From: a virus | Virus record (IMG/VR): IMGVR_UViG_3300021168_000053 | DNA length: 40,716 nt | Direction: 5' to 3' (one strand) | Shown: piece after piece, positions 1 to 35,897 of the stretch | Layout: each line of letters opens with the position of its first letter | Position numbering within the stretch: position 1 is the stretch's first letter | Notes under the pieces: generated by a model | What the model was told of the DNA's origin: nothing | The model's database searches: none | Seen by the model: only the letters and a program-made list of their open reading frames with translations | Program-made: the position numbers and the translations under genes

Positions 1-1430
1 ACAACCGGGCTCTTCGTGAGATCGCCAAAGCCGCACCCACCACTCGCCAAGGTACGGTTTCAGAGGGCGACGCGACAAAGGGCCTTCGCAAGGCCGGTGG
101 TGGCCAGCGGTTCATGGCTGCGGACAATCTGGAATCGGTTATGGAGAAGTCGGCCGTGACCAATTCCGCGTCGGCTATGGTAGCCGACGAGTTCTCGCGG
201 TCCGCCACGTATACCCAGCCCCGCAGCATCACCATCGAGGGCAAGTACGAGGGCGCTCCAGTCATCAGCATCTGGACTGGTTTCGCGGTCCAGGTCGTCA
301 ATACTAAGGGCGACCGCCGGATCGAGCAGGGGCCGAAGAAACTCCTTCTCGACTACGACGAGACGCTGGAGGTCCAGGAGCTGTCCACCGGCAAGCCCAA
401 GACCACGGATAAGCTCAAGCGCACGGTATACTTGCGCGTCCTGAACAACAAGGTCTCGGATGTTATCGTCGTCGAGACCAAGGATCACGTCGAGGTCGAG
501 GTCAAGGTCTGCTACCGAGTCAACTTCAAAGGCGACTCATCCAAGTGGTTCTCCAGCGACAACTACGTCAAGTTGCTCTGCGACCACGCCCGTTCGTTGC
601 TCAAGGGACAGGTCAAGAAGTTCACAATCAGCGAGTTCTACGCAACTCCGACGGACATCATCCGCAACGTCATCCTCGGCACCTCCAGCCCGGACGGACG
701 CAAAGGACTGATCTTCGACGAGAACAACATGGAAGTCGGAGACGTGGACGTGACCAGCGTCACCCTGAAGGACCAGCGCATCGCCGGGGTCCTCCAGCAA
801 GCGCAGCACGAAGTTATCCAGCAAAACATCTCGCTGGAGCGTGCGCTGCGAAACCTGGAAGTCACCATGAAGCAAGAGGAGATCAACCGCAAGAGCGCCG
901 ACGCCCACCACGAAACGGTGAAGCGAAACACGCAGCTGGAGGCGGAGACAATCCAGCTGGCCTTGTCGCTCTCTCTGGCCAGGATCGAATCCCAGCTGGA
1001 GGAAGCCGCCAAGCAGGCAGAGGCTGAGAAGGAGCGTCAGCGCCAGGAAGACATCGTGCACGACTCAGATCTGTCGCGGCGCTCGCGCACGGCCACTCTG
1101 GACGCCACCATCGAGACTGACAAGCAGAAGCGTCAGATCGAGTTCATTCAGGCTGAAGCAGCAGCGCTCGTTCAGAAGTTCGGCGCCCTGGCGCCGGGCT
1201 TTACCGAGGCATTACTGGCCGTCAGCAACAACCACACGCTGGCGCAGATCGCAGAAGCGGGCTCCGCTCAGCATCTGCTCGGCGGCAAGACGGTGATCGA
1301 GATCTTGGGCAAGGCATTCTCCGGTTCTCCCTTCCAGAACGTGCTGGAAAACATTGCCAAAAGGGCGACGGCTCCGACGCTGAACGCCAACGGCAATCTC
1401 TCCAACAAGCCTCAGCTCCCCGCCACGTAA
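1..1430 (+). CDS. SPFH/band-7-like domain protein with C-terminal coiled coil. The frame is open to the window start, so the gene is 5'-partial. The first in-window ATG is at 114.
   Basis: Frame of ORF 114..1430 has no stop back to position 3. Central region (VYLRVLNNKVSDVIVVETKDHVEVEVKVCYRVNF...FYATPTDIIRNVILG) resembles an SPFH/prohibitin-like fold. C-terminal 150 aa is Q/E/A-rich coiled coil. A terminator follows. Confidence 0.55.
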   Translation, partial: NRALREIAKAAPTTRQGTVSEGDATKGLRKAGGGQRFMAADNLESVMEKSAVTNSASAMVADEFSRSATYTQPRSITIEGKYEGAPVISIWTGFAVQVVNTKGDRRIEQGPKKLLLDYDETLEVQELSTGKPKTTDKLKRTVYLRVLNNKVSDVIVVETKDHVEVEVKVCYRVNFKGDSSKWFSSDNYVKLLCDHARSLLKGQVKKFTISEFYATPTDIIRNVILGTSSPDGRKGLIFDENNMEVGDVDVTSVTLKDQRIAGVLQQAQHEVIQQNISLERALRNLEVTMKQEEINRKSADAHHETVKRNTQLEAETIQLALSLSLARIESQLEEAAKQAEAEKERQRQEDIVHDSDLSRRSRTATLDATIETDKQKRQIEFIQAEAAALVQKFGALAPGFTEALLAVSNNHTLAQIAEAGSAQHLLGGKTVIEILGKAFSGSPFQNVLENIAKRATAPTLNANGNLSNKPQLPAT

Positions 1431-6367: not shown

Positions 6368-6794
6368 CAGCGCTGGCGCTGCTCTCCTTGGAAACCTTCG
6401 GCTTGTCCTTCTTCACGAGATCAACTCGCTCGTCCTCGAAATAGAACGAGTCGATTGGCTTCCCTTCATGCAAGGCGGTGGGGGCGATGATCAGTCGAAC
6501 TCCCCGGTAGAGAGAGACGGTGCGCCCGCTGAGGATGCCCTCGAAACCCGTCCACGTATCCCGCACGCGACTCCCCATCGGGATCCTCACATCGGGAGTC
6601 TTGAACGGCTTTGCCTCCTCGGTGGTTTCGAGGTTCTGTTCGTCGAAGACCTGGCTCTCGACGGGTTTACCATCCTTCAGCTCAGACGATTCGACCATGA
6701 TCTGCGCGCAACCGTGCAGAAATTCCGTGCGCGCAATCGCCATCCCGCTGAAGCCATTGATCGTGTTGCGGACTTTATTGCCGAGGTTGATCAT
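6336..6794 (-). CDS. Hypothetical protein, 152 aa
   Basis: ORF. Composition more protein-like than the overlapping plus-strand ORF 6255..6797. Abuts the ARH gene. Confidence 0.45.
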   Translation of the reverse strand: MINLGNKVRNTINGFSGMAIARTEFLHGCAQIMVESSELKDGKPVESQVFDEQNLETTEEAKPFKTPDVRIPMGSRVRDTWTGFEGILSGRTVSLYRGVRLIIAPTALHEGKPIDSFYFEDERVDLVKKDKPKVSKESSASAGGPQQYPANR

Positions 6795-7642
6795 TAGGAA
6801 TTCCCTCCTTGTTTCATCTTGGCCATCAGTTTCTCATCCAGCTCCCGTAGAAAGCGGAGCCCATACTTGCCTTTTTCCAGCGTGTCATACAGGTGTTGCG
6901 GCAAGTTCTTCTTCATCTCCCGAGAACATGAAGCCGCTGCCATGGTAATCGCCGCTGCCGTATCGGTATCCCCGCCGAAGTCAACCACCATCTTCAGGCA
7001 GTCGGCGAGATTGTCTGTGGCCTTGATGCATGTGACAGCAGCACGAACATCCATCCAGCCTTGGGCCTTGACCTTACCTGTCCATGGCTCATCCCAGTTA
7101 CGGGTCCCAGCAAGAGTCAAGTACTGCCCAATCCCAGCCTTTGGCCCTTTGTCATAGAGAAAATAATGAGTCATGAGCGCGACCGCCTGAGCCGCAGCGA
7201 TTCCGTCGATCGTATTGTGGGTGATCTTGGCTTGCTGTCTCGCCGCTACAATTACCTTGAACGCATCTGGCAGCGTGCCGATTGGACCTGCACGCATAGC
7301 CGCACCACTTTTGTCAGAGTCCGGGACGACCTCCTGCTTGAAGCCGGAGACCGTCGAGATGCGTTCGAGAATTGCCTGGAACCCGCGGGAGTATCCGTCC
7401 CGAGGGTCTCTCTTGAACACGTCGATAAACTTCGCGATGACCACATCTTCATCGAACGGCGCCTCGTCGACTAGTAGCTCAGCAACCGCGATCGACATCT
7501 GGGTGTCGTCGGTATACTGGCCTGCCTTCAGCTTGTGAGTGGGGTGCTTGACATACTTTGACAAATCGTTCTTAGGCAGATTGGAGTCAGCGTACTCGAA
7601 CCCGCTCCCGTAGGCATCACCGATAGCAATCTCAACGAGCAT
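6794..7642 (-). CDS. ADP-ribosylglycohydrolase (ARH/DraG family)
   Basis: Family signatures: N-terminal IGDAYGSGFE, YTDDTQM, and C-terminal DFGGDTDTAAAI metal-binding motif. 282 aa. Confidence 0.85.
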   Translation of the reverse strand: MLVEIAIGDAYGSGFEYADSNLPKNDLSKYVKHPTHKLKAGQYTDDTQMSIAVAELLVDEAPFDEDVVIAKFIDVFKRDPRDGYSRGFQAILERISTVSGFKQEVVPDSDKSGAAMRAGPIGTLPDAFKVIVAARQQAKITHNTIDGIAAAQAVALMTHYFLYDKGPKAGIGQYLTLAGTRNWDEPWTGKVKAQGWMDVRAAVTCIKATDNLADCLKMVVDFGGDTDTAAAITMAAASCSREMKKNLPQHLYDTLEKGKYGLRFLRELDEKLMAKMKQGGNS

Positions 7643-14557: not shown

Positions 14558-14635
14558 TGGAGATCCCAACGGGGCTCGAACCCGTGGCCTCGACGGTGCT
14601 TACCCGCCGTGCTCTGCCAGCTGAGCTATGGGACC
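14558..14635 (-). tRNA. tRNA (75 nt plus encoded CCA). The anticodon loop is probably GTAAGCA, but the anticodon assignment is uncertain.
   Basis: RC reads GGTCCCA-TA-GCTC-AGCTGGCAGA-GAGC...GGCGG-GTAAGCA-CCGTC...ACGGG-TTCGAGC-CCCGT-TGGGATC-T-CCA. The acceptor is a perfect 7-bp stem, the D-arm is canonical, and CCA is encoded. Confidence 0.7.
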
Positions 14636-15340: not shown

Positions 15341-15390
15341 CTCTTGACTATTGTACGACGAATCAAGGTTCCGATTACAGCCTATCTTAG

Positions 15391-15464
15391 TGAGCGGGGA
15401 AGGAGTCGAACCTTCATACCTCCGGCTTAAACACGCCGTTGCTCGGCCATTGAGCTACCCGCCC
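15391..15464 (-). tRNA. tRNA (74 nt, no encoded CCA). The anticodon region reads ACGGC-GTGTTTAA-GCCGG. A GTT (Asn) anticodon is possible, but the loop appears to be 8 nt.
   Basis: RC reads GGGCGGG-TA-GCTC-AATGGCC-GAGC-A-...-GAAGG-TTCGACT-CCTTC-CCCGCTC-A. The acceptor is 7 bp (one G-U), and the D and T arms are canonical. Confidence 0.6.
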
Positions 15465-15718: not shown

Positions 15719-15801
15719 CGCAGCCGGCGGGGATCGAACACCGCTACCTCCTCGGCCCCTCTCGGAGTTGCCAAGGCGCTCTCCCATTGAGCTACGGCTG
15801 C
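15719..15801 (-). tRNA. tRNA, 83 nt, probably type II with a long variable arm. Anticodon not resolved.
   Basis: RC reads GCAGCCG-TA-GCTC-AATGGGA-GAGC...TTCGATC...CGGCTGC-G. The acceptor is a perfect 7 bp and the D-arm is the classic TAGCTCAATGG-AGAGC. The T-stem pairs poorly as read. Confidence 0.5.
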
Positions 15802-24854: not shown

Positions 24855-25691
24855 ATGGCTACCACTGACGCAGTCGAAGTCTTCGAGTTCGCCTCTGGTT
24901 CGATCACTGGGCGTGAGCATCAGCTAATCGGCAAGAACAATCAGGATGCGTTCTCAATTACCAGCTCAGCCGGACATTTTGTGGCAGTCGTCTGCGACGG
25001 CTGTGGCAGCAGCAAACATAGCGAGGTCGGAGCGCAGATTGGAGCTTCAATAATTGGGAAGGTCGTTAGCAAGGCACTGATTTACAGTGCACCTACCAAC
25101 GTGATGAATGCCTCTGCGTTCTGGGAAGACATCCGCCGCGAAATAACCCATCGGCTCACATCTGTCGCGTACAACATGACACCATCTAATAGAGACTTGC
25201 GCGAAACGGTGGAGAGGTTTTTCCTCTTCACCATCGTCGGAATCGCCATCACTCCCAACTTCGTGGTGCCGTTCTCGATCGGCGATGGCATCTGGATCAT
25301 CAATGGCAAGAAGCATCGCCTTGGCCCCTTCGAGAACAACGCACCGCCTTATATCGGTTACGGTCTGATCCGCAATAATGGCGGGTGGAAGGATGAGCAA
25401 CTTCGCATCCGGTTAGGCGACATCTACGTTGTCGAGGAAGTGCGTAACGCGCTCATCGGCACTGACGGAGTCATAGATCTGATCGGTGTACTCCCGGAGG
25501 GAGAGTACATCAACCAATTCTGGGACGACTCCAAGTACTTCACAAACCAAGACGGCGTCAGACGCCGGCTTTGCCGGTTGAACATGGCTCGGGAAACAAT
25601 CAACTGGGAGCAGCGCAGAGTTGATCGCCAGCATGGCCTTCTCCCCGATGACACCACTCTCATCTCCATACGGAGAAAGGTTAGCCTGTGA
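24855..25691 (+). CDS. PP2C-family Ser/Thr protein phosphatase
   Basis: PP2C motifs in order: GKNNQDAF...VAVVCDGCGS (motifs 1/2), FSIGDGIWII (GDSR-type), LIGTDGVIDL (DG motif), DDTTLISI (terminal DN-T motif). Stop overlaps the kinase start (GTGA). Confidence 0.75.
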   Translation: MATTDAVEVFEFASGSITGREHQLIGKNNQDAFSITSSAGHFVAVVCDGCGSSKHSEVGAQIGASIIGKVVSKALIYSAPTNVMNASAFWEDIRREITHRLTSVAYNMTPSNRDLRETVERFFLFTIVGIAITPNFVVPFSIGDGIWIINGKKHRLGPFENNAPPYIGYGLIRNNGGWKDEQLRIRLGDIYVVEEVRNALIGTDGVIDLIGVLPEGEYINQFWDDSKYFTNQDGVRRRLCRLNMARETINWEQRRVDRQHGLLPDDTTLISIRRKVSL

Positions 25692-27580
25692 ACGTCTACA
25701 TCGCTGGTAAGCGTGTCACTGTCGAACCGGCTCGTGCTATTGGCAAGGGCGGCGAAGCTGACATCTATGACATCACAATTTCGTCCAGCGATCCTATCGT
25801 TCTCAAGCTGTTCAAGCAGCCTGATCATCCTGATCTAATAGGAGACAAGAACGAGCAGAGTGCAGCTACAGCTCGGCTTCAACGCCACCAGCATAAGCTC
25901 CCCGAGTTCCCCAAAAACCTGCCGGCCAATGTAATTGGTCCCAAAGATCTTGCCTACTCCGCAGCCAAGAATGGATCCGTCGTCGGTTACACGATGACGT
26001 TCCTCAACAACACCGAGCCACTACTGCGCTACCAAGAAAAGAAGTTCCGCGCTGGCGCACCTGCCGATTGCATCCGGGACATCTTTCTAGATCTCCATCG
26101 CACGGTCGATAGCATCCACTCGCAATCGATCGTGATTGGCGATTTCCACGACCTTAATATCCTGGTCAATAAAGCTCACACCGCTGTCGCAATCATAGAC
26201 ACCGACAGCTTCCAATTTGGGAAGTGGTTCTGCAACACCTTTACTGAGGTGTTTGTCGATCCGCTCTTGTGTGACAACAAGGCCACGTCCCCCACACTGG
26301 TATGCCCGCACAATGCGATGTCGGACTGGTATGCCTATGCCATCATGCTGATGCGTTGCATGCTATTCGTCGGGCCTTACGGCGGCATCTACAAACCCAA
26401 GGACCACAAGAAAAATATTCCGCATCCTGCTCGGCCGATGCACCGGATCAGCGTTTTCCACCCTGACGTGCAGTATCCCAAACCCGCCATTCCCTACAAG
26501 CTCCTCAGCGATGAGCTTCTGCACCATCTTATCCAAGTCTTCGAGCAGGACTATCGCGTTCGGTTCCCCGAGCAGCTAGTGGCAGATCTTCGCTGGACTA
26601 CGTGCAACAAGTGCGGCATCGCTCATGCCCGACGCACCTGCCCGGACTGCAAGCCCACGCCGGCAGCAGCCGTTGCTTCCACGACGACAATCCGCGGGAA
26701 GGTTACCGTGTCGACGCTGTTCAAGCTGAAGCAAGGGCGAATCGTCTTCGCAACCGTACAGGGCGGCGACCTCAAGTACGTCTACCACGACGGCAATGAA
26801 TACTGCCGCGAGGGTGGACGAACCGTCCTGAAGGGTGCACTGATTCCATCTGGATCTGCCAGGATCCGTGGAGCCGACACCCTTATGATTGAGAAACATG
26901 GCTTCATGATGATGAAGCCTGGTGATATTCCGTTGTCAGCCGCTTACAAAGGGCAGACCTACACATCAGATAGCTGCGACGCCAATTCCAAGCATTTCTA
27001 CTGGTCAGAAGCTGGGGTTCTGAAACGCGACGACGTTCACGGTCCTGCCTTCATCGGCAACGTACTGATGGATCGAACCAAATTTTGGGTCGGTGAAGCA
27101 TTCGGCTTCGGCTTCTATCGTGCGGGGAATCTCAGCGTTGCTTTTGTGTTCGACGCTGAGCGACAAGGAATCAACGACAACGTCAAGTTCCCCCGCATCA
27201 CCGGCGAGCTAATGGATTGCACCTGCGTCTTCACAGACAAGCTGGCGTGGTCATTTCAGATGATCAAAGCAGGTGCGAAGACCATCAATCGCTGCGTTGT
27301 TGTGACGAGGGCTGGGGATATCCTCGCTACTGCTGAGGCTGACGCTGGAGACCCGTCCTGGCTGGGCAGCATCAGAGGGAAGGCTCCCGTCAGCGGTTTC
27401 TTGTTCGCTGCAACGGACGATGGGCTTGTACGGGTGGAGGTGCAGAACGGGGCGCTGGTTGTTACCCGCCAGTTCCCTGACACGGAATCGTTCGTCGACT
27501 CGGAAACGCGGCTGCTGGTCACTGGCAAAGGGCTAGTGGCAGTGGGTCCGCAAGAAATCAAATTGATCGAGATGAAATGA
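25688..27580 (+). CDS. Protein kinase (protein-kinase-like fold, RIO/Kdo/eukaryotic-like) with an internal Cys4 zinc ribbon and a C-terminal beta-propeller-like repeat domain
   Basis: G-loop IGKGGEADIY, beta3 Lys in VLKLFK, catalytic loop IVIGDFHDLNILV (D...N spacing 5), Mg-binding AIIDTDSF, and an ePK-like alphaF SDWYAYAIMLMRCMLFVGPYGG. Then CNKCG...CPDC. The C-terminal 300 aa has repeated beta-strand blocks with G/D turns. Confidence 0.7.
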   Translation: MNVYIAGKRVTVEPARAIGKGGEADIYDITISSSDPIVLKLFKQPDHPDLIGDKNEQSAATARLQRHQHKLPEFPKNLPANVIGPKDLAYSAAKNGSVVGYTMTFLNNTEPLLRYQEKKFRAGAPADCIRDIFLDLHRTVDSIHSQSIVIGDFHDLNILVNKAHTAVAIIDTDSFQFGKWFCNTFTEVFVDPLLCDNKATSPTLVCPHNAMSDWYAYAIMLMRCMLFVGPYGGIYKPKDHKKNIPHPARPMHRISVFHPDVQYPKPAIPYKLLSDELLHHLIQVFEQDYRVRFPEQLVADLRWTTCNKCGIAHARRTCPDCKPTPAAAVASTTTIRGKVTVSTLFKLKQGRIVFATVQGGDLKYVYHDGNEYCREGGRTVLKGALIPSGSARIRGADTLMIEKHGFMMMKPGDIPLSAAYKGQTYTSDSCDANSKHFYWSEAGVLKRDDVHGPAFIGNVLMDRTKFWVGEAFGFGFYRAGNLSVAFVFDAERQGINDNVKFPRITGELMDCTCVFTDKLAWSFQMIKAGAKTINRCVVVTRAGDILATAEADAGDPSWLGSIRGKAPVSGFLFAATDDGLVRVEVQNGALVVTRQFPDTESFVDSETRLLVTGKGLVAVGPQEIKLIEMK

Positions 27581-30119: not shown

Positions 30120-32696
30120 ATGCGTTCCAGTTTGGCCTTGATGACCATGGCACTTTTCGCAAGTCCGGCATTTGCGGATCTTCCCGCACCCCGGCTCGTG
30201 CCTGGGCAGCATGTCTACTTCATTCCCGATGGCTACTTCAACCCGGATTTCAATGGGACGCAGATCCAGCGGATCAACACTGCGGCGCAGTCTCTCAAAT
30301 ACCCTTTCTTCGTGGTCGTCAGCCAGTATCTGCCCGGCGGCACCGACCAGGCGGCTGCCGACGCCATCAACAGCATCGCGGAACAATGGACACGCCATGG
30401 TGGATTCGATCCGGGTACGTCATCCGTCTTCCTCGTCTCGTACGCGCCTCAAAAGTGGCGCTTCGTCGCGGGCACGGAATGGCAGTCGAAGTTCGGCATG
30501 ATCAAGAAAGCGACAGCCACATATACCAACAACTTCGTGACTGCCGCAAAGCGTCGCCCGCGGGATCTGGCTGGCGGAATCATCAACACGATGACGGCAT
30601 TCGATTCGTACCTCTGGGAACAGACCGACCCAGTCCGCATCGCTGCTCGCGAAAAGACCGCACAGGAAGAAGCAGCACGCACGCGTTTGCGCGAAGCGAA
30701 GGCCAATATCGATGGCGCGATCGAGCATCTGTCCAGTCTCCTCACCGATAAAGAATATCTACCCAAGGACGTGACGGAATATACCCAGCTCGCAACCATT
30801 CTCGATCAGGCGCGGAAGTCAGACAACGCCGACACGATCACCAGCGTCACCGGAGATGCTCTGCCGAAGATCCAAAAGCTGGATGGAATGGTCTCGCTGA
30901 AGCAATCAGAAGCGAGTGCACGCACCGCTCGTCACATCGCCGAGACGATCTTCTTCCTTCTGATCGCTGGCGCCATCGGCATCTGGTACTTTCGACGGAA
31001 GAGGCGCTTCAACAGCTTGCGCGATTCGTTCGAGATTGAAGCCACCAAGTGGGAGCAGATGGTCACGAATGCTTCCAACAACTATGCTTCGGTCTATCTC
31101 GATCGTGACGATCTTGTCGGAATGTCTTCCATCCAGGGTGACACCAAGAAGCTGTACGACTCCGTTACGGCGGAGGTTAACGACATTTACCTGTGCATAA
31201 AAGCCCTGGAAGCACACGTCGCAGAATGCCGCGCGCTCGCCGAGAGTGCGAACCTCTTCGACATGGATCCCCTCCTCAAGGCGAAGACAGACCTTGACGG
31301 AGACTTTCAGTTCGACACCGAGAAGGTCAATGCCGACGAGTTGTTCGGAAGGGAGACCAAAGTCATCAAAGTCAATGCAGCAAAGTTCGCTGCCGACCAG
31401 GCCACCCGCTTCAAGAAGGCCAAGAGTGAGTGGGATCGCCTCAAGACTGCTGCCCGTGAGCGAGTCGAGCCTCTTGACGCCATGCTCAAGAGCAAGTCCT
31501 TCGAGGAGTGCAAAGCCAAAGCAACCGGCGTCTGGCAGCGTTGGATCAAGGACCATCCGCTTTATGACGGGCTGGATACGATCACCAAAACACTGAACTC
31601 TCTCCGCGTTCAGGATCCAATCGCCGCTCACAAGCAAGCCACTGAGCTTTTGGCTCGGGGCGCGGTCATGGAAAGCCGCTTCAGCGAAATGTACGATGCG
31701 GTGGAGTCCATCAAGAAGGCCAAGCCCGACAAGCTGCCCGACTTCACCGGGACTATCCTCAGCGACAAAGACAACCCGCAGGAGATCTTGAAACAAGCCG
31801 CCGATGCCGAGACCAAGCTTGCGGGTATGCTCGCGTCGTTCCCTGTTACAGATTCCAGCCCGGTCATCGGACAGGCGAAGCAGATCGCCGACCTCTATCG
31901 GCGCGCAACTCAGCAATCCTTCGAGATCAAAGCTGCGATTGAGCAAGCCGCTCAGGCTATCACCAGAGCGCAGAGTCTCCGCTCTGCCGCTGATCAGGGT
32001 ATTACAATCGGACAGAAGGCCATCGACGCCGCGGAAAAGGTGCACGACGAGAAGGGACTCAAGGCCGCTCGCGACACCATCAATACAGCTCAGAAGCGCC
32101 TTTCGGCTGGCAGTGCGGATCTTGAGACTGCGGTGCAGGCGATCAATACGAAGAAGCATCTGGAGGCTCTCCGTGCTGCGAACTCGGCCGCACAGAGTTA
32201 CACGACCGCAGCAGAGACTGCATCCAAGGCCAAACAGATCTGCAATGAGCTGGACCGCAAGAAAGCCGAATTCGAGCGGAAGCAGGCAGAAATCAAAGCC
32301 AATTACGAACGGAAGCAAGCTCGCTACCGCCAGTATGGCGGACGGAGCACCTTACAGCAGCCGACGGTGATCATTCAGAATAACAACACAAACAACAATC
32401 GTGCCGATTACGACTTCATGTTGACCCAGATAGTGATGGAAGAAGCCATGTGGGACCAGCAGATCGCCTCCGCTCAACAAGCGCAGGAAGCTGCGGAGCG
32501 CGCGGCAAGACAGGCCGCTGAAGAGGCGGAGCGAGCTGCCAGGTACGCTCGCGAGGAGTCCGACCGGCAATCTAGGTACTCATCACGAAACGATGACGAC
32601 AGCTCCTCTGGGAGCAGCTGGAGTAGCTCTGACAGTTCTGATGGCGGAAGCTTCGGCGGTGGTGGATCTGACGGTTCAGACGGAGGTAGCTTTTGA
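30120..32696 (+). CDS. TPM-domain (TLP18.3/Psb32/MOLO-1 phosphatase-fold) membrane protein. It has a signal peptide, an extracytoplasmic TPM domain, one TM helix, a roughly 550-aa coiled-coil-rich cytoplasmic region and a Gly/Ser/Asp-rich tail.
   Basis: MRSSLALMTMALFASPAFA signal. TPM-like PFFVVVSQYLPGG...AEQWTRHGGFDPGTSSVFLVSYAPQKWRFVAGTEW. TM IAETIFFLLIAGAIGIWYF. Tail SSSGSSWSSSDSSDGGSFGGGGSDGSDGGSF. 858 aa. Confidence 0.65.
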   Translation: MRSSLALMTMALFASPAFADLPAPRLVPGQHVYFIPDGYFNPDFNGTQIQRINTAAQSLKYPFFVVVSQYLPGGTDQAAADAINSIAEQWTRHGGFDPGTSSVFLVSYAPQKWRFVAGTEWQSKFGMIKKATATYTNNFVTAAKRRPRDLAGGIINTMTAFDSYLWEQTDPVRIAAREKTAQEEAARTRLREAKANIDGAIEHLSSLLTDKEYLPKDVTEYTQLATILDQARKSDNADTITSVTGDALPKIQKLDGMVSLKQSEASARTARHIAETIFFLLIAGAIGIWYFRRKRRFNSLRDSFEIEATKWEQMVTNASNNYASVYLDRDDLVGMSSIQGDTKKLYDSVTAEVNDIYLCIKALEAHVAECRALAESANLFDMDPLLKAKTDLDGDFQFDTEKVNADELFGRETKVIKVNAAKFAADQATRFKKAKSEWDRLKTAARERVEPLDAMLKSKSFEECKAKATGVWQRWIKDHPLYDGLDTITKTLNSLRVQDPIAAHKQATELLARGAVMESRFSEMYDAVESIKKAKPDKLPDFTGTILSDKDNPQEILKQAADAETKLAGMLASFPVTDSSPVIGQAKQIADLYRRATQQSFEIKAAIEQAAQAITRAQSLRSAADQGITIGQKAIDAAEKVHDEKGLKAARDTINTAQKRLSAGSADLETAVQAINTKKHLEALRAANSAAQSYTTAAETASKAKQICNELDRKKAEFERKQAEIKANYERKQARYRQYGGRSTLQQPTVIIQNNNTNNNRADYDFMLTQIVMEEAMWDQQIASAQQAQEAAERAARQAAEEAERAARYAREESDRQSRYSSRNDDDSSSGSSWSSSDSSDGGSFGGGGSDGSDGGSF

Positions 32697-33187
32697 GTAC
32701 CGCCATCTATCCGGGATCGTTCGACCCGATTACCTATGGGCACATGGACGTCATCGACAAAGCCCAACGAGCCTTCGATAAGGTGGTGATCTGCGTCGGA
32801 GTCAATCAAAAGAAAACCCCAACATTTACGCCGCAGTATCGATGCGATCTTATCAAGGAGCTGTACCCGGACTGCGATGTCATCACGTGGAATGGTCTCA
32901 TCGTCGAAGCCGCGAAACACGTGGGCGCAGCGGTCATTGTGCGAGGATTCCGTGCATTGGCCGACTTCGAGGCGGAGTTTCGGATGGCACATATCAATAA
33001 ACGGCTGGCGCCGGATATCGACACGGTGATGTTCCCAACAAGCGAGGAAACAACGTTCTACTCCTCCTCAATCGCAAAGGAACTAGCGATGGTCGGTGCT
33101 CCGCTCATCGACATCGTTCCTGCATCAGTCGAGCGTGCCCTCCGGGATACTTTCAGACCCGTCAATATCCAAAAAACGCCTAGGTAA
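32693..33187 (+). CDS. coaD: Phosphopantetheine adenylyltransferase
   Basis: TTG start overlapping the upstream stop. AIYPGSFDPITYGHMDVI (the T/HxGH motif of PPAT) and the typical 160-aa length. Confidence 0.85.
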   Translation: MSTAIYPGSFDPITYGHMDVIDKAQRAFDKVVICVGVNQKKTPTFTPQYRCDLIKELYPDCDVITWNGLIVEAAKHVGAAVIVRGFRALADFEAEFRMAHINKRLAPDIDTVMFPTSEETTFYSSSIAKELAMVGAPLIDIVPASVERALRDTFRPVNIQKTPR

Positions 33188-33241
33188 TTCTTGTAAGGTT
33201 CTGTGACGTAGGTCGTATATCCTGTTGTCAGGAGTACGGCC

Positions 33242-34114
33242 GTGATATTCCCCGAGCCACCGCAATCCAAGCGCCAGGCTGTACTGGAGCAGGTCTTCGC
33301 TCCTTGTGAGCTGGACTATCCCTGGCTCAGGAACCGGACAATATTTCTCACACTCCACGGATCGCACGCCCATGGCACCAATCGTGAGGGCAGCGACTAT
33401 GACGTAAAGGGCATCTGCCTCCCGCCTCTCGAACATTACTGCGGACTCCGGCGTGACAAGCACATGTTCCAGCAAGTTGACCGGCATAACCCTATTGACC
33501 TGGTCATCTACGAGCTTCAGAAGTTCTTGAAGCTTGCAGCCAACTGCAATCCGACCATTATCGAAATTCTCTTCACTGATCATGCGCACCATCTGCATCT
33601 GACAAGCGTTGGGGATGAGCTGCTACGACATCGGGACCTGTTCATCTCGAAACGAGCAAAGTCCTCTTTCGGAGCATATGCGAAGGATCAATTCGACAAG
33701 ATCAAACGTCATCGAAGCTGGCTAACGAGTCCTCCCAAGGAGTCAGATAGCCCTGAATGGGTGGCCTATCAGAACCACTTGAAAACACGGAACCAGAAGC
33801 GTCTGGAGCTAGAGAAAAGGTTCGGTTACGACACGAAACATGCTTTTCACCTAGTGCGACTACTTCGGATGGCCTTGGAAATCACGCGTGACGGTGTTGT
33901 ACTAGTCACACGACCCGATGCAGGTGAGCTTCTCCGTATCAAGGATGGAGCCTGGTCATTTGAAGAACTGACTGAGTGGGTAGATCGTCAGTACGCACTG
34001 ATTGATGCCGCCTTCAGGACTTCAGCCGTCCCTGAGGTGTGCAACATAGAGGCTATTGAGCGCCTCTGTGTGGACATAACACGACAAACGCTGGAGCGAG
34101 ATATCGCCGGATAG
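33242..34114 (+). CDS. Putative nucleotidyltransferase (Pol-beta superfamily, MNT-type) with a C-terminal helical domain
   Basis: LHGSHAHGTNREGSDYDVKGI matches the GS-x9-13-DxD minimal nucleotidyltransferase signature. 290 aa. Confidence 0.55.
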   Translation: MIFPEPPQSKRQAVLEQVFAPCELDYPWLRNRTIFLTLHGSHAHGTNREGSDYDVKGICLPPLEHYCGLRRDKHMFQQVDRHNPIDLVIYELQKFLKLAANCNPTIIEILFTDHAHHLHLTSVGDELLRHRDLFISKRAKSSFGAYAKDQFDKIKRHRSWLTSPPKESDSPEWVAYQNHLKTRNQKRLELEKRFGYDTKHAFHLVRLLRMALEITRDGVVLVTRPDAGELLRIKDGAWSFEELTEWVDRQYALIDAAFRTSAVPEVCNIEAIERLCVDITRQTLERDIAG

Positions 34115-34746: not shown

Positions 34747-35084
34747 TCAGCGAAGATGAAGAGTGGGAGCTGCGGCTAGAGAACGCCCGCCTGCGTGCTC
34801 GCGTTTTCGAGCTTGAACAGTCGATCGCCAAACATCGTGCCGCCGACGGTAACGACCTCTGCTGGGAAAACAACCTGGAACTCTGGGCAACGCTGAAGGA
34901 CGACGTTCCGTATCCGCACAAAAGCATTCCACCGTGGCCGCAATTCCTATCGAATTGCGTGAAGTACCGATCCCAACTGGATGCTCCTCAGCCGATCGCA
35001 CCAAGTGCGAGTAAACCACTCGACAGGTGGTTCGACTCGAAATGGACCGGCATCCTCAATGCCGCGAGCAAGACCAAACGTTAG
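34743..35084 (+). CDS. Hypothetical protein, 113 aa (ORF track start 34674)
   Basis: GGAG lies 4 nt before ATG 34743. Translationally coupled to the upstream gene. Confidence 0.4.
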   Translation: MISEDEEWELRLENARLRARVFELEQSIAKHRAADGNDLCWENNLELWATLKDDVPYPHKSIPPWPQFLSNCVKYRSQLDAPQPIAPSASKPLDRWFDSKWTGILNAASKTKR

Positions 35085-35605
35085 TCCCAATTGCCGCGGA
35101 TGTAGTCTTTGTACCGCCAGGTCTTACCAGTAACGTGATCGTTGACTTGCCCGTCCTGTGCTCTGATAGTACGGCGCTTGTCGCCACGCATCCCCGAGCC
35201 CACCTGGCGTTTCCTATCGTCTGCCCTAGCTGAGACCACCTTCTCCTGCTCTACGGCCCATAGACGCGAACGCAGAAGCTCCAAAGCTAGCTGGCGGTTA
35301 TGGTGCTGACTTCGCCCGTCTTCAACACGCACCTGGAGCTTCGTTGGGATGTGCGTGATCTGGACAGCTGACTCTGTTTTATTGCGGTGCTGTCCACCAG
35401 GTCCAGATCCACGGCAGGTGGACCACTCCAGGTCTCTTGGATCTATGCGAACTTGGGCTTCGGTGGGATCCGGGAGAACAGCTACCGTGATTGTTGAGGT
35501 ATGAACGCGTCCACGCTTCTCATTTGGGGGGATCCGCTGCCAACGGTGGCCGCCAGACTCATCGCGGAAAGCCACATCAGCACCGACACCGCCAGCACGA
35601 AACAC
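35081..35605 (-). CDS. Truncated class-I peptide chain release factor homologue (PrfH/RF-H-like). It keeps the GGQ domain and part of domain 2/4, and lacks domain 1. GTG start at 35605; the frame is open to 35665.
   Basis: RAGGVGAD...ESGGHRWQRIPPNEKRGRVHTSTITVAVLP...RGSGPGGQHRNKTESAVQITHIPT...EDGRSQHHNRQLAL aligns with RF1/RF2 from the RAGTGGDE block onward, with the middle segment deleted. An in-frame TGA at 35666-35668 is preceded by non-RF sequence. Confidence 0.7.
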   Translation of the reverse strand: MFRAGGVGADVAFRDESGGHRWQRIPPNEKRGRVHTSTITVAVLPDPTEAQVRIDPRDLEWSTCRGSGPGGQHRNKTESAVQITHIPTKLQVRVEDGRSQHHNRQLALELLRSRLWAVEQEKVVSARADDRKRQVGSGMRGDKRRTIRAQDGQVNDHVTGKTWRYKDYIRGNWD

Positions 35606-35897
35606 CAGAACCCCAGGCCGTTGTTCGACGATGGCGATGTCAAAGACCCCTCCGATCCGCCAGTTTCATGTAGATCGCGAATTGCTCTAAAACCAACAAC
35701 TTGGCATCATCCCCGCCCTCGGCCGCCCTGATTTCGACAGTAAGTCCCATTGCACTATCCTTGGATCAGAAAATACATTAGCAGATTTACTCGATGTCGA
35801 GCAGAAGGAAAGCCCCTCCCGTCCTCGGTAACGCGAGGGGGGAGAAACCACGCCACTAAAGACGAGAGGGGCTAAAGCTCGTTGAGGGTGGAGCTGG

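Follow-up and report, generated by a model that had tools for sequence, protein, structure and literature searches.

A short RF1-like release-factor gene divided between two frames at a predicted prfB-type +1 frameshift signal

A programmed frameshift in a release-factor gene is regarded as a signature of the autoregulation of release factor 2 (RF2), whose gene, prfB, carries its frameshift site at codon 26 in E. coli, within domain 1 of the protein. Among 8,164 prfB motifs the stop codon at this site is TGA in 98.6%, TAA in the remainder and TAG in none, and the same 2025 survey, which spans more than 12,000 genomes, reports no evidence of frameshifting in prfA, the gene for release factor 1 (RF1; PMC12421855). 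Full-length RF1 and RF2 are also borne by huge or stop-recoded phages with genomes rich in transfer RNA (tRNA) and translation genes; the papers concerned mention them only in passing, and describe neither a loss of domain 1 nor a frameshift (PMC7162821, PMC13037316). Here we describe a release-factor gene on the minus strand of a 40,716-nucleotide stretch of viral DNA, IMG/VR record IMGVR_UViG_3300021168_000053, referred to below in its entirety as the window. Its predicted product is an RF1-derived class-I factor of domains 2, 3 and 4 without domain 1, and, as the nucleotide sequence reads, the full-length protein can be made only through a +1 ribosomal slip at a prfB-type signal. We consider it likely that this 222-amino-acid factor is gated by the frameshift, and that its output is tied to slow termination at the stop codon of the shift site.

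The gene is laid out in two frames (Table 1). On the minus strand an open frame extends from 35668 to a TAA codon at 35083-35081, with its first canonical start, a GTG, at 35605, from which 174 amino acids would be read. An earlier reading of the window, made from the letters alone and called here the original prediction, took this frame for a stand-alone, truncated release factor of 175-195 amino acids with a GTG start and an internal deletion. The GTG is indeed the first canonical start of the long frame, but the gene itself begins further upstream, at an ATG in another frame, and encodes 222 amino acids over its full extent. The upstream open reading frame, ORF0, runs into a TGA, and the +1 frame, ORF1, carries on from there; with a +1 slip at the CTT (CUU) codon preceding that stop, translation of both frames gives the fused product. 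The whole recoding string, GGAGG-GGT-CTT-TGA-C, occupies 35653-35639 at the end of ORF0, and GGAGGNNNCTTTGA is found once in the window against 0.03 occurrences expected. The +1 frame of the window has stop codons shortly 5′ of the shift site and no ATG-, GTG- or TTG-type start until GTG 35605, where initiation would cost two strands of domain 2 in the AlphaFold2 model presented below. A scan for promoters and terminators around the gene returned none on its own strand.

Table 1. Coordinates of the release-factor gene and its elements in the window
Feature	Position	Strand	Remarks
Whole gene, predicted 222-amino-acid domain-1-less RF1-like class-I release factor	35081..35750	minus	Two frames joined
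Putative Shine-Dalgarno-like element AAGGA	35758..35762	minus	7 nucleotides 5′ of the ORF0 ATG; from reading of the sequence
ORF0, 36 codons, MGLTVEIRAAEGGDDAKLLVLEQFAIYMKLADRRGL	35643..35750	minus	ATG 35750, stop TGA 35642-35640; first strand and helix alpha5 of release-factor domain 2, with the RAGxGGDE-type block IRAAEGGDDA
Internal Shine-Dalgarno-like element GGAGG	35649..35653	minus	3 nucleotides (GGT) 5′ of the slippery codon
Shift site CTT TGA C	35639..35645	minus	P-site CUU; A-site UGA (35642-35640); C next
ORF1 (+1 frame), 186 codons, DIAIVEQ...RGNWD	35084..35641	minus	Stop TAA 35083-35081; remainder of domain 2, GGQ domain 3, domain 4
Pro-Pro-Asn, residues 74-76	35522..35530	minus	At the position of the RF1 'PxT' tripeptide, by alignment to RF1 structures
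GGQ motif, residues 118-120	35390..35398	minus	Peptidyl-tRNA hydrolysis site; codons GGT GGA CAG
Predicted tryptic peptide spanning the frame junction, GLDIAIVEQRPGVLVFR			

The homology to release factors and the GGQ motif, both proposed from the outset, are real and far beyond chance. Pfam recognizes, in the ORF1 frame, the RF-1/GGQ domain (PF00472, E 7e-30) together with the C-terminal 30 residues of PCRF (E 9e-09), and among the NCBIfam models prfA (185.9 bits) scores above prfB (121) and PrfH (87.7), all under their cutoffs. Fusion of the two frames lifts the prfA score to 210.8 bits (prfB 129.3, PrfH 97.2), and the alignment, which began at model position 177, then begins at 115. The fused protein matches TIGR00019 over positions 115-337 (E 2.7e-62), residues 89-312 of T. 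maritima RF1 (E 6e-46) and residues 113-335 of E. coli RF1, with no gap at the junction in either of the two RF1 proteins; by alignment, junction residues Leu36 and Asp37 correspond to W144 and R145 of E. coli RF1, directly after helix alpha5 of domain 2. Since the fused protein aligns unbroken to RF1 domains 2-4, the supposedly deleted middle segment and the shorter length were artefacts of a missed +1 frameshift. The stretch once identified as the RAGTGGDE block, VFRAGGVGADVAF (with 'RAGGVGAD'), in fact aligns with the strand preceding SGGH, and the real block lies upstream in the other frame.

The absence of domain 1 has held up. All six-frame stop-to-stop translations of the window were searched with a hidden Markov model (HMM) representing 55 canonical RF1 proteins, which has just two matches, at 35084-35665 (E 9e-62, model positions 162-331) and at 35643-35765 (E 6e-6, positions 110-142). 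Because positions 1-109, which stand for domain 1, are unmatched anywhere in the window, this domain is truly absent. A frameshifted, prfB-like release-factor segment upstream, which the original prediction had named as evidence that would count against it, does exist in modified form, but it supplies the start of domain 2 and not domain 1.

An AlphaFold2 model of the fused protein, computed from a 33-sequence alignment (predicted local distance difference test, pLDDT, 87.1; predicted template-modelling score, pTM, 0.72), has the domain 2-3-4 fold, including the expected GGQ domain; its helix at residues 14-34 comes from ORF0 and its strand at 37-44 from the +1 frame. Compared by Foldseek, the model superposes on ribosome-bound RF1 with a template-modelling (TM) score of 0.88-0.90, a root-mean-square deviation of 2.4-2.5 Å and 37-39% identity, on RF2 with a TM score of about 0.78-0.85 and 26-31% identity, and on PrfH (9mor_A) with 0.66 and 24%, the weakest of the release-factor matches. 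The protein nevertheless stays below the cutoffs of all the curated models: those of the RF1 equivalogs (TIGR00019, 210.8 vs 423 bits; NF001859, 212.1 vs 400), of RF2 (TIGR00020, 129.3 vs 370, with P-P-N as its tripeptide and SPF absent), of PrfH (TIGR03072, 97.2 vs 166.65) and of ArfB (NF006718, 42.8 vs 100). The ArfB match (E 4e-11) covers the GGQ region alone; ArfB, ICT1 and C12orf65 consist of a GGQ domain and a basic tail only, whereas the protein described here keeps the whole codon-recognition superdomain.

The two-frame layout is shared by a family of related loci. IMG/VR holds 510 relatives, and the best 80 of these, examined for contig context, lie mostly on viral contigs of 50-460 kb. 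In GTDB, members of the short family occur in Myxococcota, namely, Archangium gephyra (on a complete chromosome), Sandaracinus, Labilithrix, Kofleriaceae, and Bradymonadia, while matches under about 46% identity are ordinary prfA genes. The same ORF0, GGAGGGGTCTTTGAC and ORF1 recur, all unannotated, in LR745208.1, a published huge phage of 485 kb. Conservation was counted over 82 distinct family loci, and shift-site features over 78 of these. In 78 of the 82 loci the shift falls at the same codon, ORF0 stopping 32 codons past the start of an EIRAAEGG-type motif and the +1 frame continuing. The P-site codon is CTT without exception (78/78); the stop is TGA at 62 sites, TAG at 14, and TAA at 2; a C directly follows it at 59; and GGAGG stands exactly 3 nucleotides upstream at 44, with partial matches at the same spacing at 13 more. 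The motif GGAGGNNNCTTTRA has one match per related locus, always at the shift site. Loci L054 and L079 also look frameshifted when inspected by eye and were missed in the automated count, and the whole protein is encoded in a single frame in L011, L037, L042, and L049 and in protein P0108. Close database homologues of 174-230 amino acids open with a short variable start followed by a conserved 'GGVFD', which is GGA GGG GTC TTT GAC read in the +1 frame, and on related contigs a homologous upstream ORF of 34-65 amino acids has been called, with a weak PCRF match in L002, L003, and L006.

Considered alone, the window, with its interrupted frame, a long ORF without an ATG, and public gene calls that give two separate ORFs, could be taken for a prfA fragment, acquired by a mobile element, that has decayed into a pseudogene or contains an error of sequencing or assembly. 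This is contradicted by the recurrence of the same interruption at the same codon across the family: 78 independent loci, with protein identities of 44-87%, share codon and heptanucleotide, both frames being conserved at the protein level, and the identical sequence was found in two other metagenomes. We regard decay or error as highly improbable. Just as hard to credit is the production of two polypeptides, a 36-amino-acid peptide and a 186-amino-acid protein, by translational coupling or re-initiation, which would assemble afterwards. The GGAGG just 5′ of the junction could serve such a scheme as a ribosome-binding site; the +1 frame of the window, however, offers no start near the junction, coupling leaves the invariant CTT before the stop unexplained, and the in-frame relatives encode one chain. 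The two-frame anatomy, the conservation of its signal across the family, and the RF1 fold are direct observations. In a neighbour-joining tree (without support values) that included canonical RF1, the family is monophyletic with respect to the latter and mixes phage with Myxococcota copies; the in-frame members branch from within it, which suggests that these have lost the shift secondarily.

The part of the protein that would read the codon resembles RF1. The Gln of RWQR is invariant in the 33-sequence alignment, as is GGQ, and a GRV[H/Q]TS motif is conserved in the family (GRVHTS in the window protein); the window protein keeps Gln71, His83, and Thr84. The tripeptide corresponding to PxT is P-P-T in 42 of the 78 shift-site loci, P-P-N, the version of the window protein, in 15, and P-P-S in 2, and over these loci no correlation was seen between the shift-site stop and the tripeptide variant. 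Further departures from RF1 are the replacement of the alpha5 Glu by Asp in 78 of 82 loci and a more basic switch-loop region (GSGMRGDKRRTIR). RF1-like decoding of UAA and UAG is the likely prediction, about which P-P-N leaves some uncertainty. In the locus of the published huge phage (L169, LR745208.1 63068-64413) the recognition loop is about four residues shorter, RVQRTSNGRIHSS as compared with RWQRIPPNEKRGRVHTS, so that the reading head varies within the family.

These residues bear on the proposal with which the original prediction began, that of a stand-alone, PrfH-like factor of 174-195 amino acids, starting at GTG, with an internally deleted domain 2, that rescues ribosomes damaged by ribotoxins independently of stop codons. 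Like PrfH, the family comprises proteins of about 200-220 amino acids that lack domain 1, keep GGQ, and have spread sporadically by horizontal transfer. RNA-repair-type genes lie close by, with an RlaP nucleotidyltransferase at 33242-34114 of the window and RNA ligase or RtcB near a few relatives. In addition, transfer-messenger RNA (tmRNA) genes adjoin the release-factor gene in two relatives (L014, 10675-11026, 11 nucleotides downstream; L018, 9209-9567, about 430 nucleotides upstream), and a third lies within 10 kb of it in L035. The evidence on the other side is broader. The protein falls well short of the PrfH model while scoring 211 bits with prfA, PrfH structures are its weakest release-factor matches, the frameshifted upstream segment completes domain 2 and leaves no deletion to explain, and the decoding residues are RF1-like rather than PrfH-specific. 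Nor does the family have the RtcB operon partner of PrfH. RtcB is absent from the window by tblastn with the E. coli protein and by Pfam scans of the large ORFs, as had been stated originally; within 10 kb, tblastn detects it only in L053 and L072 of about 95 loci, adjacent in neither, the called neighbours of related loci contain no RtcB Pfam match, and RlaP occurs within 10 kb in only 3 of the 82 loci. Because the RF1-type reading head is largely kept, stop-codon-dependent release is favoured over rescue of the PrfH type, although the factor may still act in rescue. A PrfH-like factor is, in our judgement, an unlikely identity for this gene.

The signal resembles that of prfB both in its parts and in its setting: an internal Shine-Dalgarno-like element 3 nucleotides before CUU, a stop codon, mostly UGA, followed by C, a +1 slip from CUU to UUU within a class-I release-factor gene, and a minority of family members that are secondarily in frame. 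The differences are equally plain. The family protein derives from RF1 and not RF2, and its shift site follows helix alpha5 of domain 2, whereas that of prfB comes early in domain 1; since the site sits elsewhere in the protein, the signal originated independently of prfB. A single inserted base could have made it, as the codons of an Arg-Arg-Gly-Leu stretch (CGG AGG GGN CTT) already spell most of the signal.

If gated by the frameshift, expression of the factor would proceed as follows. Initiation at ATG 35750 and the reading of 36 codons would bring CUU into the P site and UGA into the A site, with GGAGG 3 nucleotides upstream and a C after the stop, a situation like that in prfB. Where the host release factor (RF2 for UGA) acts fast, a 36-residue peptide would be freed; where termination is slow, the peptidyl-tRNA-Leu would slip from CUU to UUU and the ribosome would carry on in the +1 frame, completing the full factor. 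Its output would go up, then, when termination capacity at the gating stop goes down. The product would be expected to enter the A site, to read a stop codon with its RF1-type head, and to release the peptide through GGQ; an interaction with RF3 is not expected, because domain 1 is absent. Across the family, the most economical interpretation is that such a gate senses the speed of host termination, that of RF2 at UGA sites and of RF1 at UAG sites, with UAA, read by both factors, nearly avoided.

A shift that merely repairs the frame is a rival account. In this account, a constitutive and efficient 'corrective' shift offsets a fixed one-nucleotide insertion, independently of release-factor levels: one base inserted into the Arg-Arg-Gly-Leu codons makes a shift-prone site at once, and an RF1-like head, probably unable to read UGA, would provide no feedback. 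However, the A-site stop has been kept at every one of the 78 shift sites, the rapidly recognized UAA has been nearly avoided, C predominates after the stop, and three relatives retain an in-frame TGA at or near the same place. Taken together, these features indicate selection for competition with termination, and we think a purely corrective shift unlikely, if very slightly less so than a PrfH-like factor.

Several observations weigh against a frameshift-gated factor, or limit what can be claimed for it. A recognizable Shine-Dalgarno-like element is absent at 11 of the 78 shift sites. TAG, used at 14 of them, never occurs among the prfB motifs surveyed (PMC12421855). In three loci (L017, L074, L076) a TGA in frame, at or near the shift position, takes the place of a +1 site, which fits a 'stop-codon gate' yet shows that the mechanism is not uniform; these loci may represent readthrough, pseudogenes, or an origin in TGA-recoded phages. 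The in-frame TGAs lie at about 10100-10130 in L017, L074, and L076, and in L017 the position is exactly that of the shift codon (CTC TGA C). Comparison of 36 window proteins by BLAST with the ORFs of the 82 loci, together with all-against-all clustering, gave the gene no constant partner. The specificity of the Pro-Pro-Asn head and of the alpha5 Asp variant is a prediction, and the shift in vivo, its dependence on release-factor levels, the codon specificity, and the biological role are what we infer from sequence. Finally, the stop at the shift site, UGA in most loci, is probably one that the product itself cannot read; with an RF1-like head facing such a gate, strict autoregulation in the manner of prfB is doubtful, and true autoregulation would need a factor that reads UGA too. 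We lean, with little more than even confidence, toward a combined interpretation: this lineage independently evolved a prfB signal elsewhere in the protein, and either the gate senses host termination (RF2 at UGA, RF1 at UAG) or the altered head (P-P-N/T, alpha5 Asp, His/Gln) reads all three stops, thereby restoring autoregulation.

The surroundings of the gene are translation-related in many loci. Half of the viral loci scanned (30/60) lie within arrays of 5-37 tRNA genes, and in some loci PTH2, NADAR, RNA ligase, a kinase-like HD/AAA_33 protein, or an EF-G homologue is found nearby. Over the 82 loci, NADAR was counted in 16, YspA-SLOG in 13, and PTH2 in 7; a 205-amino-acid ORF with a KLDGSN motif, present in 9 loci, was read as ligase-like and has no Pfam match. 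The genes upstream of ORF0 differ between related loci. In the window, a cytidylyltransferase-like gene (PF01467) is followed by RlaP (PF10127), the pair spanning 32693-34114 on the plus strand; it adjoins the release-factor gene in an identical short metagenome contig as well, and RlaP also adjoins that of the closest relative, L001. Linkage to RNA repair through RlaP was considered as a defining feature and dropped, given its rarity in the family.

The window itself, of about 55% G+C, suggests a large phage, in keeping with the mobile-element setting proposed originally. IMG/VR contigs of 55-199 kb carry several of the same genes, and besides four tRNA genes the window encodes an SNF2 helicase, an ADP-ribosylglycohydrolase, a PP2C phosphatase and a kinase-like protein, the cytidylyltransferase, RlaP, and a vault-shoulder-like protein. 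None of its genes was identified as structural, megablast of 20 kb of it against GenBank phages gave no match, and the exact shift-site 37-mer has no match in IMG/VR. PADLOC returned no match for the release factor or its neighbours, and only generic ones for the SNF2 helicase. By a crude greedy selection of ORFs, plausible genes in the window end in TGA (29), TAG (23), and TAA (16). The original prediction had seen no evidence of recoding, and so far as reassignment is concerned this stands, all three stops ending genes, which sets the window apart from stop-recoded phages; the release-factor gene itself, however, would need a programmed +1 frameshift.

The tRNA genes of these regions have features of their own. 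Suppressors of +1 frameshifts typically have expanded anticodon loops, and CUU, the shift-site codon of the release-factor gene, is decoded by AAG-type tRNAs. At 14558-14635 (minus strand) the window encodes a 78-nucleotide tRNA with anticodon AAG (Leu by anticodon), lacking the long variable arm of bacterial tRNA-Leu and with C at position 37; we speculate that this tRNA would decode CUU and, once slipped by +1, could pair well again with UUU. ARAGORN reports tRNAs with 8-nucleotide anticodon loops in the window (15390-15464, minus strand, with the four-base anticodon 'gttt') and, with 'taag', in L013 (7510-7587) and L025 (8439-8513); relative to the short tRNA(AAG) of L010 and of the window, with which they align, the tRNAs of L013 and L025 have one additional U in the loop. 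The fourth tRNA of the window, at 15719-15801 (minus strand; 83 nucleotides; Rfam 37.8 bits), was missed by ARAGORN and has an apparent insertion in or near the anticodon arm.

Three other loci of the window deserve mention. In a 438-amino-acid protein encoded at 114-1430 (plus strand), a weak vault repeat accompanies the shoulder domain of major vault protein (PF11978, E 2e-25); such a gene seems unusual for a phage-like genome. A PP2C-type phosphatase (PF13672) overlaps the start of a 630-amino-acid protein with a weak protein-kinase match at 24855-27580 (plus strand), and the pair may form a phosphorylation switch module. The ADP-ribosylglycohydrolase lies at 6794-7642 (minus strand) and, considered with the NADAR genes of related loci, suggests that the regions around this family also carry genes that reverse ADP-ribosylation.

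What is new here is the combination of a release factor lacking domain 1 with a prfB-type recoding signal. We found no paper or annotation describing this short frameshifted family, in a search whose coverage left out many subscription journals, where a prior description is possible; reviews of release-factor evolution and recoding are silent on frameshifted or short phage release factors (PMC6514570, PMC1586002, PMC5009743, PMC3711429). Public gene calls split or truncate the family into proteins of 174-208 amino acids with spurious starts and an orphan ORF of 34-65 amino acids. By exact look-up, which a different choice of start would also defeat, five fused sequences, one of them from the RefSeq chromosome of A. 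gephyra, were absent from a collection of 15 billion proteins, and a word-index protein search with the first 86 residues returned fragments only.

A second, independently evolved case of a frameshifted release-factor gene, in an RF1-like gene, at another position, and with both UGA and UAG in use, amounts to a natural experiment on the reasons for gating a release factor by a stop codon. If either version of the gate is true, programmed frameshifting is not confined to RF2. We infer that the product serves as a back-up or auxiliary termination factor, or a rescue factor, among the translation functions carried by large phages, and the family suggests that such phages would monitor the termination capacity of their hosts and supplement it. 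A compact factor without the RF3-binding domain, and with a variable reading head, may also help the engineering of genetic codes.

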